DNA of 17,082 bases, taken from the IMG/VR virus record IMGVR_UViG_2651869694_000011. One strand, 5' to 3'. Both the position numbers and the translations under genes were made by a program. The notes below the pieces were generated by a model. It was not told the DNA's origin. It saw nothing but the letters and a program-made list of their open reading frames with translations, and did no database searches. Source of the DNA: a virus. Lineage: Duplodnaviria; Heunggongvirae; Uroviricota; Caudoviricetes. How positions within the stretch are numbered: the first letter of the stretch is position 1; each line of letters begins with the position of its first letter. Shown here piece after piece: positions 1,963-15,748 of the stretch.

Positions 1963-4434
1963 TTAAAAATCAGCCTGACTCGGGATCAGTTTTTGCCAGA
2001 TAACTGAAACGTATTTTGCCTGGTAACGGGCGTCATCAAGTGCATTATGGCGCTCACCTTCGAATGGAATAGCCGTTCTGGCATCGAAGTCTATGGCTTT
2101 CCCCAGCTCAACGATTGTGCGTACATCGCGATCGTTGTAGTAACGCCACGGGCAGGGGATCCCCTGCCGTTCGTATGAACGGCGCAAAATCGTGTTGTCG
2201 AAGTTGGCTCCATTTCCCCAGACCTGAACAAAAAATTCACCGGAGTTTTCGTCGATAAATTCCCGCAATTGTAACAGTGCATCATCTAACGGGATTTCAT
2301 CGGTCATAATGGCAGATTGCGCTTCGCGTGATTGCTTAAGCCACCATTTAATGGTGTCCCGATCAATGACTCCGCCAGCAGTTTCCAGATCGATAGTCTT
2401 ACTAAATTCCGGTCCCATATCTCCGGTTTGCGGATCGAAAAATATTGCACCTATTGAGATGATCGGGGCATCAGGATTTTTTCCCATGGTTTCAAGGTCG
2501 ATCATTAGATGGTCACACGTCCTGCTGGTGGATGTGATTTCTTGATGACCGTTCACCTTAATTGAGTGATCTGCCGTCTCGCCAGTTTCATTATCGCTAT
2601 CGTGATGCTGATTGCCGCCAGTGTTCTCCTTGTGTGGATGTTCAGCGCCTTCCATTTTCTCCGGATCATCTTCCTGAACTTCAACCTGATACTCTTCATC
2701 GAATGTTTCCTGGTATGTTGCGTCGCCCATCACTGCGCCACAATCAGGGCAGTTGCCGCCGCCGGTCTGACCGCAGGCGGTGCAGACCTTTTCCACTTCC
2801 TGTTGCACCACTGGTTCAGGCTGTTTCGTTTCTGGCTCGTTTTGTAACGCATTTGGGCTGTTTTGTTCCGCTTTCTGGTAGTTCCGTTCCGATTCATGCT
2901 GGTTCTGGTTCACAGAATCGCGGGTCTGGATCCCCTTAACCCATTTCGGATCATTCGGGTCGCTAATCCCTGCAACAAATTCACCACGAGAGACAGCAAG
3001 CAACTCATCGGCGTCAGGCTGGCTGATATTGGCTGCCTGCATAATTTTGTTTACTTCGTCAGCGGTAACTTTTACCGACCCTGGTTGTGCGGTCGTGTCA
3101 GATGCACCAGTATTTTGTTGTGAACCTGAGTATGTACCGTTTTTGCGGGCGAAATATTCTTCTTTCGTGATTTCAGTAGCCCCAGCAGACAGCGCCTTAT
3201 CCAGACCAGAAAGTTTGTTTGCGCGACCGTATTTTTCGCCATCCTTGTCGGTGAAGAGGAAGTAGAACGGCCCCTCACGCTCTACAGATGGTTCGACTTC
3301 CACTTTGCATTCGGTTTTTTCGTTGTCCGGAATTGCCGTTTCCACTGCATCAGTTTCTGGTACTGGCGACGAGAGAGTATCAGTTGCGCTCTGATTTGTT
3401 CCTTCATCTTCAAACACGCCCTTTGTAGTCAGGTATTCAGTAATGTATTTGTTCAGTGCCACAGGGTCTTTGTGAATGTCGATCGGACGTTCACGGACAA
3501 GGCCAAAAATAGTCTGGCGGTCGTAGCGAAGGGCATCAGGCTGTTTGCGCATTGATGCCGAGATACGCTTCCAGTCTTCGCGGTCGTTGTCGATAACTTC
3601 ATTTTTTGCCCAGCGATGGATGCTGCCGTCAATGTTTCCGGCATCCACATCACCAGGCCAGAGAGCGTAGGCCAGTTCGTCATCCAGTGTTTTCCATGTC
3701 TGCTTGTATTCGCGATGAATGGCAGCAATGACCGGGTTGATTTTTCCTGTTGAATTTTCAGTGTGCTGTTGATTGGCTCTGGCGCGGGCGAGATCAACAA
3801 CAGACGTGTATTTTCCGGCTTCCTTGCGTTCACCTTCGCGACGTTTTTTCCAGATGCGCATCTCTGCCTGAATTTCGGGCCATTTGGCACCAGGCTTACA
3901 TTTATGCTTAACCCACCCGATGGCATGCAGCTTAAGCTCCGGATACATAGCGTTAACTTCTGGCATTTTCATCAACGCTTCAACGATATGGCCGTCGAAT
4001 GTTGCCATGTCTTCCTGCAACAATTCCTGTGCGCTAATCACCATATCAACAGTGATGTTTTCACATGTGTCGAACTTAACCATGACAGCGTTCTGTACTT
4101 CAGGGGCTAGGTTGTCAAAAGTGACGTTCATCGGATCGGATTCAGTCTCAACCGGGACAAAAGAAGCAGACTCCTCATCCCAGCGGTTTTCCTGCATATA
4201 TTCAGCATCCCATGAATCGAGGGCAGGGCGGGGTATGCCAGGTTTATCCTCGCAGACAATAAATTTATAAGCGCAGTCCTGAGCAGCCGGATAATGTTCC
4301 AGGAATTGCCAGTGAAATTTTGCGCGGGCGCGACATTCATCACCGGCTTCAATGGCAGTGGCTACAGCGACTGCACCTTCTTCCTTTATTGCCTGTTCGT
4401 CCGGAATGGCGGCGCAAATAAAGACTTTACTCAT
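1963..4434 (-). CDS. Large prophage exonuclease: RecE-like N-terminal/central region fused to a C-terminal DnaQ-like (DEDDh) 3'-5' exonuclease domain
   Basis: 823-aa ORF. The C-terminal ~200 aa carry the three DEDDh motifs (IDLETMG; WGNGANFDNTIL; HNALDDARYQAKY). The central segment LLAVSRGEFVAGISDPNDPKWVKGIQTRD matches a conserved stretch of E. coli RecE as I recall it. CTACGQTGGGNCPDCG is a CxxC...CxxC zinc-ribbon-like motif. GAGGT lies 4 nt upstream of the ATG. Confidence 0.85.
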   Translation of the reverse strand: MSKVFICAAIPDEQAIKEEGAVAVATAIEAGDECRARAKFHWQFLEHYPAAQDCAYKFIVCEDKPGIPRPALDSWDAEYMQENRWDEESASFVPVETESDPMNVTFDNLAPEVQNAVMVKFDTCENITVDMVISAQELLQEDMATFDGHIVEALMKMPEVNAMYPELKLHAIGWVKHKCKPGAKWPEIQAEMRIWKKRREGERKEAGKYTSVVDLARARANQQHTENSTGKINPVIAAIHREYKQTWKTLDDELAYALWPGDVDAGNIDGSIHRWAKNEVIDNDREDWKRISASMRKQPDALRYDRQTIFGLVRERPIDIHKDPVALNKYITEYLTTKGVFEDEGTNQSATDTLSSPVPETDAVETAIPDNEKTECKVEVEPSVEREGPFYFLFTDKDGEKYGRANKLSGLDKALSAGATEITKEEYFARKNGTYSGSQQNTGASDTTAQPGSVKVTADEVNKIMQAANISQPDADELLAVSRGEFVAGISDPNDPKWVKGIQTRDSVNQNQHESERNYQKAEQNSPNALQNEPETKQPEPVVQQEVEKVCTACGQTGGGNCPDCGAVMGDATYQETFDEEYQVEVQEDDPEKMEGAEHPHKENTGGNQHHDSDNETGETADHSIKVNGHQEITSTSRTCDHLMIDLETMGKNPDAPIISIGAIFFDPQTGDMGPEFSKTIDLETAGGVIDRDTIKWWLKQSREAQSAIMTDEIPLDDALLQLREFIDENSGEFFVQVWGNGANFDNTILRRSYERQGIPCPWRYYNDRDVRTIVELGKAIDFDARTAIPFEGERHNALDDARYQAKYVSVIWQKLIPSQADF

Positions 4435-4526: not shown

Positions 4527-4718
4527 TTAAAGACCTGCCGGGATTTCGTTATTATCCTGGTGAATAACTTTATCGACCGGGTAACAGTTACCGGGAATTT
4601 TCTGTTCGGTTGCTGCAGTCACACACTCCTGCATTGTCCTGTGAACACTGACTGCAATATCAACTGGCTCTCCGGAAACAAGAAAAACTGTCAGAACAAG
4701 TGCAAATGCTGTATTCAT
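4527..4718 (-). CDS. ydfD: YdfD-like small membrane protein (63 aa)
   Basis: Start ATG overlaps the dicB stop in an ATGA arrangement (plus-strand tcat at 4715-4718). N-terminal hydrophobic segment MNTAFALVLTVFLVSGEP. Sequence and length match my recollection of Qin prophage YdfD. The track ORF 4527..4772 is a longer in-frame extension. Confidence 0.7.
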   Translation of the reverse strand: MNTAFALVLTVFLVSGEPVDIAVSVHRTMQECVTAATEQKIPGNCYPVDKVIHQDNNEIPAGL

Positions 4719-4903
4719 TGCCAGCATCCTTTTTGTATCGGACGTAAACGGGCCAGCATTGAAAGAATGCATATTTTATTTAATAACTCCCGTTCGTGTT
4801 TTCTCTTGTTAATGGCATCTTCAGTAAATACAGGGTTACTGATAGTGACACCAATTTCAAAACAACCTTCAGACGTATTAACGTTTGGTAATAACGTTTC
4901 CAT
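4715..4903 (-). CDS. dicB: DicB-like cell division inhibitor (62 aa)
   Basis: Internal ATG of track ORF 4715..5008 gives METLLPNVNTSEGCFEIGVTISNPVFTEDAINKRKHERELLNKICILSMLARLRPIQKGCWQ, near-identical to E. coli Qin DicB as I recall it. dicF lies immediately upstream, as in Qin. Confidence 0.85.
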   Translation of the reverse strand: METLLPNVNTSEGCFEIGVTISNPVFTEDAINKRKHERELLNKICILSMLARLRPIQKGCWQ

Positions 4904-5072: not shown

Positions 5073-5130
5073 AAAAAGGGCGGCAGAGCAGTCACGGAGT
5101 AAAACTGATACCGCCAAACGTCACCAGAAA
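5073..5130 (-). ncRNA. dicF: DicF small regulatory RNA
   Basis: The reverse complement of 5073-5130 reads tttctggtgacgtttggcggtatcagttttactccgtgactgctctgccgccctttttaa, which matches the E. coli DicF sRNA sequence from memory, including the terminal hairpin and U-run. Position directly upstream of dicB is as in the Qin dicB operon. Confidence 0.8.
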
Positions 5131-5393: not shown

Positions 5394-5546
5394 TCAGTTA
5401 GCGTTTCTTGCTAACCAGCGATGCGCGCCAGCTTCGGTTTTAAACGTTTTACTTCTGGTATACGTCATCGCGGTAAACGTGCCGTCGTGGTTGGGGAATA
5501 CTCCGCACACCAGAGATTCATTGTTGCCAAGATTGAGCATATCCAT
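5394..5546 (-). CDS. Candidate small ORF (50 aa) in the early leftward operon, possibly YdfA-like
   Basis: Minus-strand ATG at 5546 with GAGGT 4 nt upstream. Translation MDMLNLGNNESLVCGVFPNHDGTFTAMTYTRSKTFKTEAGAHRWLARNAN. Below the ORF-track size cut-off. Identity to YdfA is unverified. Confidence 0.35.
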   Translation of the reverse strand: MDMLNLGNNESLVCGVFPNHDGTFTAMTYTRSKTFKTEAGAHRWLARNAN

Positions 5547-5726
5547 GTTGACCTCATTTACCCTTAACGCCGGGTCGCGGAACTAAAAACCTGCTGCGCT
5601 GTTATACAAAGTGTTCCCGCCGTCATGTTCATACGCCTCGGGCTGGCTACTTAACCCCTGACCACTGCCGGGTAACTCGAGGTATTGCCCGACGTTCTGT
5701 GGGGCGAGGTAGGGTGGTATGTAATA

Positions 5727-5770
5727 AATCTAAAAGTATTTAGTTTTTCAGTCAAGATAAATCTAGATTA
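5727..5770 (-). promoter_or_regulatory. Candidate leftward early promoter (pL-like) with OL-like operator palindromes
   Basis: Minus-strand -35 TTGACT (plus coords 5750-5755) and -10 TAGATT (5727-5732) with 17-bp spacing. ATCTAAAAGTATTTAG (5728-5743) is near-identical to the OR palindrome at 6534-6551. A second palindrome AATCTAGATT sits at 5760-5769. Confidence 0.45.
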
Positions 5771-5774
5771 ATTT

Positions 5775-5800
5775 AAAAAAAAAGGTCGGCATTGCCGACC
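5775..5800 (-). terminator. Rho-independent terminator downstream of the repressor gene
   Basis: Hairpin ggtcggc-att-gccgacc (5784-5800) preceded on the plus strand by an A9 run (U-run on the minus strand), 22 nt past the cI stop. Confidence 0.65.
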
Positions 5801-5821
5801 TCAAGTAAAGGACGTGGCGGG

Positions 5822-6469
5822 TTATAAGTTGAACTGTACACCTTTTGCTACGGCAACAATTTTACACTCTGGTGTAAGTAAGGATGACTGATAGCGTGGA
5901 TTGAGAGGGCTTAAATACACAAGCTTCCCATCAATAACTAATTTCTTTATAGTCATAGATGGTTCATTTTTAAGCGGATCCGGAACTATTACAGCGACGA
6001 TGCTGCCATTTTTATAACTTTCTCCTGGCCTTAGGATCACAGTAGCACCAACTGGGATACTCGGTGATCCTGATGGGTTATGCATTGTGTCATCAGGCAT
6101 TGAAACGGCAAAATCACCTTCCTCGACATCAAAGAATGTGGTGATCCTATCGACATTTCCCATTGTTTTCTCTCCTTTTAAGATTAGGAAAGAAATCGCC
6201 TCACCCCACGAAAGGTAGGGGATCTTGGTGCCTGAGGTACTTTGTACAAAAGATAATTCAGGAGACGATACTCCATATAGGAGATAGGACTCAGTAGTTC
6301 CTAATGCCTGGGCTAACTTACTTAGAGCTTTGCTACCTGGTTCGTTTAGATCTTTCTCCCAGTACCCTATAGTAACCCCAGTCACGCCTGAAAGCTTACC
6401 CAGTTCTACTTGGGTCAGCCCCTTATCTTTTCTAAGTCTCTTAAGCCTGATGCCAAGGCTTTCCATCAT
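5822..6469 (-). CDS. CI-like phage repressor: N-terminal XRE-type HTH plus C-terminal S24 (LexA-like) peptidase domain
   Basis: HTH region GLTQVELGKLSGVTGVTIGYWE. C-terminal domain aligns with lambda cI (AVSM vs GNSM catalytic Ser; IKKLVIDGKLVYLSPLNPRYQ vs [21 protein letters not shown] with catalytic Lys). AGGAG precedes ATG ATG at 6469/6466; the track start at 6481 is a TTG. Confidence 0.9.
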   Translation of the reverse strand: MMESLGIRLKRLRKDKGLTQVELGKLSGVTGVTIGYWEKDLNEPGSKALSKLAQALGTTESYLLYGVSSPELSFVQSTSGTKIPYLSWGEAISFLILKGEKTMGNVDRITTFFDVEEGDFAVSMPDDTMHNPSGSPSIPVGATVILRPGESYKNGSIVAVIVPDPLKNEPSMTIKKLVIDGKLVYLSPLNPRYQSSLLTPECKIVAVAKGVQFNL

Positions 6470-6481
6470 TTTCTCCTGCAA

Positions 6482-6563
6482 ATTGAATATAAATTATTTT
6501 AGATTGCATTGACCTAAAAAAAATTATCTTGTAATCTAAAAATACTTAGATTTAGGAGGTAAA
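6482..6563. promoter_or_regulatory. Divergent immunity promoter/operator region (pRM/pR/OR equivalent)
   Basis: AT-rich 82-bp interval between divergent repressor and cro-like genes. Perfect inverted repeat ATCTAA-N6-TTAGAT at 6534-6551. Candidate pR -35 TTGACC (6509-6514) and -10 TAATCT (6532-6537). GGAGG precedes the cro-like ATG. Confidence 0.5.
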
Positions 6564-6791
6564 ATGCGAGTTGATGAACTTGTCCAGTTTTTTGGTTCTG
6601 TTCAGAGGGTTGCCGATTTTTATGGGATAACCCGCGAAGCTATTTACATGTGGCGTAAGCGTCCTGGTGAAACAGTTCCGAAGGGGAGGGCTGCGGAAGC
6701 TGCTGCATACTCCAAGGGGAAATTATCTTTGAACCCAGAACTTTACAAAAAGAAGGATACCACTCAGGGCGAAGGAAAGGGGGATTCATGA
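6564..6791 (+). CDS. Cro/DicC/YdaS-like small HTH regulator
   Basis: 75-aa ORF divergent from the repressor, with a strong RBS (aggaggtaaaATG). Motif FGSVQRVADFYGITREAIYMWRK parallels DicC (FGSKTKLAQAAGIRLASLYSWK) as recalled. Confidence 0.8.
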   Translation: MRVDELVQFFGSVQRVADFYGITREAIYMWRKRPGETVPKGRAAEAAAYSKGKLSLNPELYKKKDTTQGEGKGDS

Positions 6792-7213
6792 AAATCAAAC
6801 ATGAGCACATCCGCATGGCGATCAATGCCTGGGCCTATCCGGACGGTGAGAAAGTTCCTGCAGCTGAAATAGCCCGGACTTATTTCGAGCTGGGGATGAC
6901 GTTCCCGGAACTGTACGACGACAGCCATCCGGAAGCCCTGGCTCGTAATACCCAGAAAATTTTCCGTTGGCTGGATAAAGACACCCCTGATGCTGTTGAA
7001 AAAATTCAGGCTCTGTTACCGGCGATCGAAAAGGCAATGCCGCCTCTGCTGGTGGCCCGTATGCGCAGTCACAGCTCTGAATATTACCGTGAGATCGTCG
7101 AACGGAGGGATCGGCTGGTGAAAGATGTGGATGATTTTGTCGCAGCGGCGATCGCCTGGGGCACCCTGACTAACAGTGGTGGTCAGCCAGGTAATGCTGT
7201 TGTCGTGCATTGA
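6788..7213 (+). CDS. ydaT: YdaT-like protein (CII-analogue regulator of Rac-type immunity regions)
   Basis: 141-aa ORF whose ATG overlaps the cro-like stop (ATGA). The sequence MKIKHEHIRMAINAWAYPDGEKVPAAEIARTYFELGMTFPELYDDSHPEALARNTQKIFRW matches my recollection of Rac YdaT. SD aaggggga upstream. Confidence 0.8.
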   Translation: MKIKHEHIRMAINAWAYPDGEKVPAAEIARTYFELGMTFPELYDDSHPEALARNTQKIFRWLDKDTPDAVEKIQALLPAIEKAMPPLLVARMRSHSSEYYREIVERRDRLVKDVDDFVAAAIAWGTLTNSGGQPGNAVVVH

Positions 7214-11559: not shown

Positions 11560-11734
11560 TGCTGCGGGTGCTTGAGGCTGTCTGCCTCGGGCATGCCACC
11601 GTAAGGCAGACAGAGAAAAGCCCCAGTTAACATTACGCGTCCTGCAAGACGCTTAACATTAATCTGAGGCCCAATCTATGCTTCACAAACGTAGGTTAGC
11701 CTCTTACGCGCCGAAAGGCAAGGAGAAGCAGGTT

Positions 11735-11890
11735 ATGAAGCAGCAAAAGGCGATGTTAATCGCCCTGATCGTCATCTGTTTAACCGTCATAGTGACGGCA
11801 CTGGTAACGAGGAAAGACCTCTGCGAGGTACGAATCCGAACCGGCCAGACGGAGGTCGCTGTCTTCACAGCTTACGAACCTGAGGAGTAA
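11735..11890 (+). CDS. hokD: Hok/Gef family type I toxin (HokD/RelF-like, 51 aa)
   Basis: MKQQKAMLIALIVICLTVIVTALVTRKDLCEVRIRTGQTEVAVFTAYEPEE matches the Hok family and E. coli HokD as recalled. SD AAGGAGAAG 9 nt upstream. Track ORF 11678..11890 is an in-frame upstream extension. Confidence 0.9.
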   Translation: MKQQKAMLIALIVICLTVIVTALVTRKDLCEVRIRTGQTEVAVFTAYEPEE

Positions 11891-15111: not shown

Positions 15112-15187
15112 GGCCCTTTAGCTCAGTGGTGAGAGCGAGCGACTCATAATCGCCAGGTCGCTGGTTCAAATCCAGCAAGGGCCACCA
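15112..15187 (+). tRNA. tRNA with CAU anticodon, most similar to E. coli tRNA-Ile2 (ileX/ileZ type); could alternatively be annotated tRNA-Met
   Basis: Manual cloverleaf: acceptor GGCCCTT/AAGGGCC, D-arm GCTC/GAGC, anticodon loop CTCATAA, T-loop GGTTCAAATCC, 3' CCA encoded. One A-C mismatch at the base of the anticodon stem. Confidence 0.9.
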
Positions 15188-15267: not shown

Positions 15268-15344
15268 GCGTTGTTAGCTCAGCCGGACAGAGCAATTGCC
15301 TTCTAAGCAATCGGTCACTGGTTCGAATCCAGTACAACGCACCA
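15268..15344 (+). tRNA. tRNA-Arg (anticodon UCU, reads AGA/AGG)
   Basis: Manual cloverleaf: acceptor GCGTTGT/ACAACGC, D-arm GCTC/GAGC, anticodon stem ATTGC/GCAAT with loop CTTCTAA, T-arm ACTGG-TTCGAAT-CCAGT, discriminator A plus CCA. Confidence 0.9.
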
Positions 15345-15662
15345 CACCACACTTATCTGCCCTGACTCTCTTTTGCGGGCTTTTTATTACAGGAAAGACA
15401 CCGGACAGTGAAATGTTAAATGCCTCACAATTCAGGCAGTTGACTGTTGCCTGACATGCTGAGCGTTTGTTAAAAAAATCCTGCATGATGAATCCCCCTG
15501 AGCGGCGGGGCATAATGACAGATGTTTGGTTGCGTATTGTATAGGCAAGTTGCGGATTCTGTCTGGTCATTGCAGAATTCACCGGGAGGCACCCGGCATC
15601 ATGCTGTATACAGAGATTAGGCATATATCCAGGCTTCTCATCGCAGGAGCCTTTTTACATGC

Positions 15663-15688
15663 AAAAAAAAGCCCGAGTGGGTTCGGGC
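15663..15688 (-). terminator. Rho-independent terminator oriented on the minus strand, with no annotated upstream minus-strand gene
   Basis: Plus strand shows an A8 run (15663-15670) then hairpin gcccga-gtgggt-tcgggc (15671-15688), which reads as hairpin plus U8 on the minus strand. Confidence 0.55.
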
Positions 15689-15748
15689 AACAGCATGAGA
15701 TACTTGCATTGTCATTTTTATCGTGTGGATTTTAACCAGGGTTTATAA

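Follow-up and report, generated by a model that had tools for sequence, protein, structure and literature searches.

Probable operators of a P22-type immunity switch flank the repressor gene of a lambdoid Escherichia coli prophage

The window analyzed here, a stretch of 17,082 nucleotides (nt) from a Caudoviricetes virus (IMG/VR record IMGVR_UViG_2651869694_000011), is part of a lambdoid Escherichia coli prophage, and our subject is a set of short palindromic sites that lie on either side of its repressor gene. The gene order used throughout was taken from the RefSeq annotation of an identical region together with our own scans. The cI-like repressor gene occupies positions 5822-6469 of the minus strand (RefSeq places its start at 6466 and lists the product as WP_000444615.1) and encodes a protein of 215 amino acids, with a helix-turn-helix (HTH) domain of the HTH_3 family (1.9e-12) and an S24-like C-terminal domain (Peptidase_S24, 5.3e-11). 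This protein was also assigned to phrog_4, and its closest solved structure is the N-terminal DNA-binding domain of the P22 c2 repressor (E = 3e-7). Across a gap of 94 bp, and transcribed divergently on the plus strand, lies a cro-like gene (6564-6791) whose 75-residue product, RefSeq WP_001261752.1, belongs to the P22_Cro family (2.7e-10). A lambdoid CI-Cro switch is recognized by divergent repressor and cro genes, a repressor that joins an HTH to an S24 domain, a Cro-type HTH protein, and dyad operators flanking the repressor gene, and each of these components has a counterpart at this locus.

The sites follow the pattern ATCTAA-N6-TTAGAT, and are designated here as right (OR) and left (OL) operators. 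Between the repressor and cro genes they form a tripartite array with starts 25 and 22 bp apart, made up of OR3 (6487-6504; ATATAAATTATTTTAGAT), which is nearest to the cI start and carries one mismatch, OR2 (6512-6529; ACCTAAAAAAAATTATCT), a weak site with three mismatches, and OR1 (6534-6551; ATCTAAAAATACTTAGAT), a perfect match to the consensus. The array beyond the 3' end of the repressor gene is at least bipartite, with starts 33 bp apart; OL1 (5728-5745; ATCTAAAAGTATTTAGTT) has one mismatch and OL2 (5761-5778; ATCTAGATTAATTTAAAA) has three, or two in a clade of 92% identity. Reading from the cI stop codon (5822), one encounters in order the intrinsic terminator of the cI transcript (5782-5802, minus strand), OL2, the -35 hexamer of the leftward promoter pL, and OL1; the T-run of the terminator runs into the right half of OL2. 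No third OL site was found in a motif scan of the window, and the position equivalent to that of OL3 in P22 is held by the cI terminator.

A first-pass annotation of this DNA had already pointed to two long copies, ATCTAAAAATACTTAGAT at 6534-6551 and ATCTAAAAGTATTTAG at 5728-5743, and to a 10-bp palindrome, AATCTAGATT, at 5760-5769, and all three strings lie where it placed them. The two long copies share 15 of 18 positions (with differences at 9, 12 and 17) and not the 16 of 18 that were claimed; within the shorter string the count is 14 of 16. The strong site at 6487-6504 had been missed along with the weaker ones at 6512-6529 and 5761-5778. The 10-bp palindrome was correctly located, but it is the left end of OL2 rather than an element of its own. 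It reads AATCTAAATT in the 92% clade and AATATAAATA in another, and a G-to-A change in other E. coli clades breaks the 10-bp palindrome and at the same time improves the 18-bp OL2 to two mismatches. A different register for OL2 (5751-5768, GTCAAG-N6-CTAGAT) was also rejected, having a poor left half and a right half that degrades in variants. As a separate matter, the centre of OR2 contains a run of A residues (6515-6523) whose length ranges from 7 to 9 among related contigs. This run is inside the spacer of the rightward promoter pR, and a change in its length would alter both the pR spacer and the spacing of the OR2 half-sites; the variation may be real, or it may reflect sequencing errors at homopolymers in draft assemblies.

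The sites are interlocked with promoter-like sequences on both sides of the repressor gene. Candidate pR (6509-6537, plus strand) consists of TTGACC (6509-6514) and TAATCT (6532-6537) separated by a 17-bp spacer; the last three nt of its -35 are the first three of OR2, and its -10 shares four nt with OR1, which also covers the start region. Candidate pL (5755-5727, minus strand) has TTGACT (5755-5750), again a 17-bp spacer, and TAGATT (5732-5727), and was picked up by a consensus promoter scan. OL1 spans its spacer and its -10, which is formed by the operator half-site, and OL2 lies just upstream of its -35. The overlap of the long sites with the -10s of pR and pL, proposed in the first-pass annotation, agrees with these hexamer positions. 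Candidate pR would drive the cro-like gene, a YdaT/CII-like gene (6788-7213, plus strand), and the O/P replication genes that lie downstream of the latter on the same strand. The build of pL recurs in Xenorhabdus (TTGCAT-17-TAGATT) and Arsenophonus (TTGCAA-17-TATATT), and the pR hexamers recur at the same spacing (TTGACC-17-TAATCT) just upstream of ydfA in E. coli K-12, where the dicBF promoter dicBp has been reported (PMC10448788).

The promoter for the repressor gene itself is less conspicuous. A putative -10 for the maintenance promoter pRM, TAAAAT (6501-6496, minus strand), falls inside OR3 in the same register as the annotated pRM of P22, and a poor -35 would lie in OR2, which argues for an activator-dependent maintenance promoter. 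Consistent with this suggestion, the consensus scan found no promoter on that strand. It also agrees with the published account of dicA in K-12, whose promoter is described as weak and activated by DicA (PMC3441716).

The search for the motif across the prophage and related phages that the first-pass annotation had proposed showed that the sites are confined to the regions flanking cI and recur at the same places in relatives. Related repressors are encoded by Arsenophonus nasoniae (51% identity), Ca. Phlomobacter (50%), Xenorhabdus hominickii (46%), Xenorhabdus santafensis (45%) and phage mEp460 (41%). In the first four, the HTH is nearly unchanged, with the sequence GV(T/S)GVT(I/V)GYWEKDLNEP, although both the flanking DNA and the remainder of the protein have diverged. 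All four of these loci carry three copies of the motif upstream of cI, their starts spaced by 22-30 bp, and Arsenophonus and both Xenorhabdus loci carry two more downstream of cI, 33-35 bp apart and placed around a -35-like hexamer; downstream of the Phlomobacter cI there is only a single match, with three mismatches. The OR1 equivalent is perfect in Xenorhabdus, and a counterpart of OR2 is present in Arsenophonus, Phlomobacter and Xenorhabdus. In X. santafensis cI and OL are separated by an inserted extra gene, and the OL1/OL2 pair and pL are kept beyond it. (The insert, at about 3140-3900 of that locus, is about 0.6 kb and holds an oppositely oriented open reading frame (ORF) that ends in HTH-like sequence.) In phage mEp460 the OR sites are AACTAAGTTTTATTAGAT and AACTAAGATTACTTAGTA and the OL site is AACTAAGTTAAGTTAGAT, of the form AACTAA-N6-TTAGAT. 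The operators have thus been inherited together with the DNA-binding domain of the repressor in Arsenophonus, Phlomobacter, Xenorhabdus and mEp460.

The same motif emerges when no pattern is supplied in advance. In a blind enumeration that took each of the 4096 hexamers as an inverted repeat with a gap of 0-10, and that covered OR and OL regions from five lineages, ATCTAA-N6 ranked first, and the next in rank were shifted or one-off versions of it. The 40 half-sites contain A at the first position in 37 cases, T in 22 or A in 12 at the second, C in 31 at the third, T in 38 at the fourth, A in 40 at the fifth and A in 39 at the sixth, after which the positions become degenerate, so that the consensus across relatives is A(T/A)CTAA-N6-TTAG(A/T)T.

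Within E. coli, 35 distinct haplotypes of 84-100% identity were compared. Polymorphic columns make up 28% of the half-sites, as against 55% of other intergenic positions and 56% of third-codon positions in cI. The centre of OL1 varies (AAGTAT, ATCTAT, GAATAT, AATAAT) while its half-sites hold, as expected of an operator with a non-contacted centre. OR1 is near-invariant and OR3 is invariant.

The match between the two sides of the repressor gene is beyond chance. Allowing one mismatch, ATCTAA-N6-TTAGAT occurs three times in the 17 kb (at 5728, 6487 and 6534), compared with 0.03 occurrences expected, and none of 200 shuffled sequences reached three. One of these matches defines the pattern, and the real test therefore lies in the other two. 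Both intergenic regions are AT-rich (61-78%), and so a local null was also used that kept their composition; it gave an expectation of 0.004, and none of 20,000 trials reached three. The idea that AT-rich intergenic DNA produced these palindromes by chance can draw on the count at three mismatches, where the five matches in the whole window (5728, 5761, 6487, 6512 and 6534) are what chance would supply (5.4 expected). However, all five fall within the flanks of the repressor gene, 216 bp in total, for which the local null predicts 0.36 (P about 5e-5), and the sites are conserved across genera, so that this explanation is effectively refuted. Nor does the motif recur at many unrelated positions, an outcome that the first-pass annotation had said would count against the operators; no further site with one mismatch or less was found in 64 kb comprising the prophage of E. 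coli O26:H11 strain 11368 and its flanks.

Two other explanations accept the similarity and assign it to a different cause. The resemblance might come from shared promoter elements, since TTAGAT followed by T yields the pL -10 TAGATT, and T followed by AATCT yields the pR -10, each next to an AT-rich spacer, with no operator involved. This account leaves unexplained the dyad symmetry and the second half-site 12 bp away, the presence of OR3 outside pR and of OL2 upstream of the pL -35, and the three regularly spaced copies in all of the relatives, and we regard it as highly unlikely. Somewhat less remote, but still improbable, is the proposal that the sites are real but that Cro or some other factor, such as the nucleoid proteins Fis, IHF or H-NS, is their main binder in vivo, the cI-like protein recognizing another sequence. 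The sequence by itself cannot tell which HTH protein is the binder, the relatives have kept Cro as well, and the AT-richness of the two regions would suit a nucleoid protein. On the other hand, CI and Cro share operators in every lambdoid switch that has been studied, the blind enumeration revealed no other repeated dyad in the OR and OL regions, and the site pattern travels with the repressor HTH across genera. Furthermore, a dimeric HTH protein accounts better than a nucleoid protein for the exact dyad, for the constant 6-bp gap, and for a C at position 3 and a G at position 16 that are conserved amid AT-rich surroundings.

A P22-type lambdoid immunity switch, with these sites as its operators, is therefore in our view very probable. 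The reading of the sites as OL and OR, as the first-pass annotation had it, is supported by the HTH_3 and S24 gene between them, the divergent P22_Cro gene, the overlap with promoters and the recurrence in other genera. Several points weigh against it. OR2 and OL2 are weak, with three mismatches each, and the conservation of the right half of OL2 may have another cause, namely the T-run of the terminator. Sites of this kind may be non-functional, as two of three operators predicted from sequence for DicA in K-12 were not bound by DicA in vivo (PMC3441716). Conservation within E. coli cannot single out the OR operators, since the whole region around them is highly conserved in the species, and pR scores 8/12, just under the threshold of the consensus scan. 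The further claim that these operators define the immunity specificity is no more than plausible, because mEp460 combines a half-site that is nearly the same (AACTAA) with a recognition helix that differs somewhat.

The switch can be modeled as follows. From the positions and statistics of the sites, their conservation, the protein domains and the promoter-like hexamers, all of which were observed directly, we infer binding by the repressor, its cooperativity, an order of occupancy and the location of pRM. Dimers of the cI-like repressor, and presumably also of Cro, would recognize the 18-bp A(T/A)CTAA-N6-TTAG(A/T)T sites. Repressor on OR1 and OR2 would occlude pR and thereby keep the cro, CII-like/YdaT and replication genes silent, and occupancy of OR2 would probably aid the weak promoter pRM. 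At high levels of repressor, or of Cro, OR3 would be filled and pRM shut off, providing autoregulation. On the other side, repressor on OL1 and OL2 would silence the pL operon, which comprises the ydfA-like gene, DicF, dicB, the exonuclease gene, xis and int. Cro would use the same sites with the opposite preference.

The repressor departs from P22 c2 around the self-cleavage site. In an alignment with P22 c2 it is without the six-residue segment WVSAGQ that holds the Ala-Gly cleavage site (in the region of residues 85-130, approximately), and it reads DDTM where P22 has GDSM, placing Thr at the position of the nucleophilic Ser; the Lys (KKLV) is retained. Neither the Ala-Gly site nor a complete Ser/Lys dyad is therefore present, which suggests that this repressor does not self-cleave. 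The loss of Ala-Gly and the Thr are found in all 52 copies of the E. coli clade and in the Arsenophonus and Phlomobacter copies, and the Xenorhabdus repressors keep the Ser and are missing the Ala-Gly. One possibility, put forward tentatively, is that the protein represents a subfamily that has kept the S24-like domain for dimerization and cooperativity but has lost self-cleavage. If so, the switch would not be directly inducible by SOS and RecA, and would rely on an antirepressor or on Cro-driven bistability. A homolog of Rem was sought at the position of K-12 rem, where a 92-residue ORF between hokD and a DUF968 gene shows no Rem similarity, and none of ten early-region proteins matched a PHROG antirepressor. 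The LexA box CTGT-N8-ACAG gave seven one-mismatch matches in the window, compared with 5.2 expected, none of them convincing.

The genes that pL would serve lie on the minus strand. The first is a ydfA-like gene (5394-5546) with a DUF1391 domain (1.3e-28), followed by the small RNA DicF (5078-5129; 76.7 bits in Rfam) and by dicB (4715-4903), whose product is near-identical to K-12 DicB. Beyond these come, in order, a ydfD-like gene, an exonuclease gene (1963-4434), xis and int (545-1663). Between pL and the ydfA-like gene is a 180-nt leader, which gave no Rfam match near threshold and whose folding is not unusual (z-score +0.5). It contains an element, TTAAGTAGCCAGCCCGAGGCGTATGAACATGACGGC (about 5616-5654, minus strand), that is kept at the nucleotide level downstream of pL in Arsenophonus and Phlomobacter, and more loosely in mEp460, and that is absent from the K-12 dicB leader. 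The element includes an ATG after GAGG, and the short ORFs found there are of unequal length across lineages.

Many strains have prophages that match the immunity region (5550-6800) at 99.9-100% identity, among them E. coli O26:H11 strain 11368, whose copy adjoins potC. That copy (NC_013361.1, 1487000-1536000) has a frameshifted portal gene and a tail-fibre gene split by IS66, and the type III effector gene espK lies at its far end; it is probably defective and yet bears virulence cargo. The same E. coli-type immunity region (96% protein identity) is also borne by a 1.8-kb contig labelled as a metagenome-assembled genome of Collinsella sp. (Actinomycetota), most likely a binning contaminant. 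At the early/late junction of the window, Rfam places the sok antitoxin with hokD (11566-11740 and downstream, to 11901). Two tRNAs are found at 15112-15184 and 15268-15341, STnc100 (Rfam) at 15454-15662, and the anti-GcvB small RNA AgvB at 15664-15723 on the minus strand, the last with an Rfam score just at threshold.

DicF and DicB affect the division of the host cell, and the literature also gives them roles in metabolism and phage resistance. The operators described here would gate these cell-division inhibitors, much as DicA does in Qin. The immunity region is present in 474 of 5426 complete E. coli genomes (as a single match over at least 80% of the 1251-bp query), and an operator set is now available for an immunity type found in that many genomes, enterohaemorrhagic O26:H11 among them. 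By this count DicF and DicB would be kept down by the switch in about 9% of the complete genomes of the species. Given the almost identical half-site used by repressors of the mEp460 type, prophages of that type and of the present one might even regulate one another's dicBF operons.

A close parallel among well-known systems is the immC region of P22, which likewise pairs an HTH and S24-type repressor with a Cro of the P22_Cro family, and whose 18-bp operators also enclose a variable centre between outer half-sites of 6 bp. The OR spacing of 25 and 22 bp compares with 25 and 23 bp in P22 (where OR3, OR2 and OR1 start at 2165, 2190 and 2213), and the pR -35, which is TTGACT in P22, overlaps OR2 by three nt in both. 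In both, OL1 lies in the spacer and -10 of pL and OL2 beyond the -35, 33 bp apart here and 35 bp apart in P22; cI sits directly between OL and OR, which are about 0.8 kb apart; and the -10 of pRM, annotated in P22 and putative here, is inside OR3. The two differ in operator sequence and recognition helix: the half-site is ATCTAA here and ATTTAAG in P22 (operator ATTTAAG...CTTAAAT), so that by sequence this module is not of the P22 immunity type, and the recognition helices, TGVTIGYWE here and SNVAISQWE in P22, differ at five positions. Furthermore, only two OL sites were found here compared with OL1-3 in P22, and the first gene after pL is the ydfA-like gene instead of the N-like gene 24.

Qin of K-12 has the same order of cro-like gene, repressor, promoter, ydfA, dicF, dicB and ydfD, and shares the 6-N6-6 operator design and the TTGACC-17-TAATCT hexamers. 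The experimentally supported DicA operator Oc, TTGTTAGTCATAACTAACAA, has this design and occupies the homologous position (PMC3441716), and DicA represses the dicBF promoter (PMC10448788, PMC3441716). However, DicA is a protein of 135 residues with no S24 domain, is 30% identical to the present repressor over the HTH (63 residues), and uses an operator, TGTTAG-N6-CTAACA, that differs in sequence from those described here. A literature search found no paper giving the present operator strings, and none on the phages vB_EcoS-689R5 and vB_EcoM-606R7.

The cI protein of mEp460, at 41% identity, resembles this repressor in the GYWEKD end of its recognition helix, and the phage has a similar pL leader element. 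It differs at three positions of helix 3 (SDVAV, compared with TGVTI here), and, unlike this repressor, it keeps both the cleavage site (SWVQAGQF) and the catalytic serine (GDSM). Phage lambda itself shares the divergent cI and cro genes, a tripartite OR over pR and pRM, and a related S24-like C-terminal domain; it differs in having 17-bp operators of unrelated sequence, rexAB between cI and OL, and an N-terminal HTH of a different subfamily. The system would accordingly be a conceptually routine lambdoid switch, in which the apparently non-cleavable repressor is the only mildly unexpected element. Judged by its operators and its predicted proteins, the module is heteroimmune to the P22 and K-12 Qin DicA types and is otherwise a known kind of switch.

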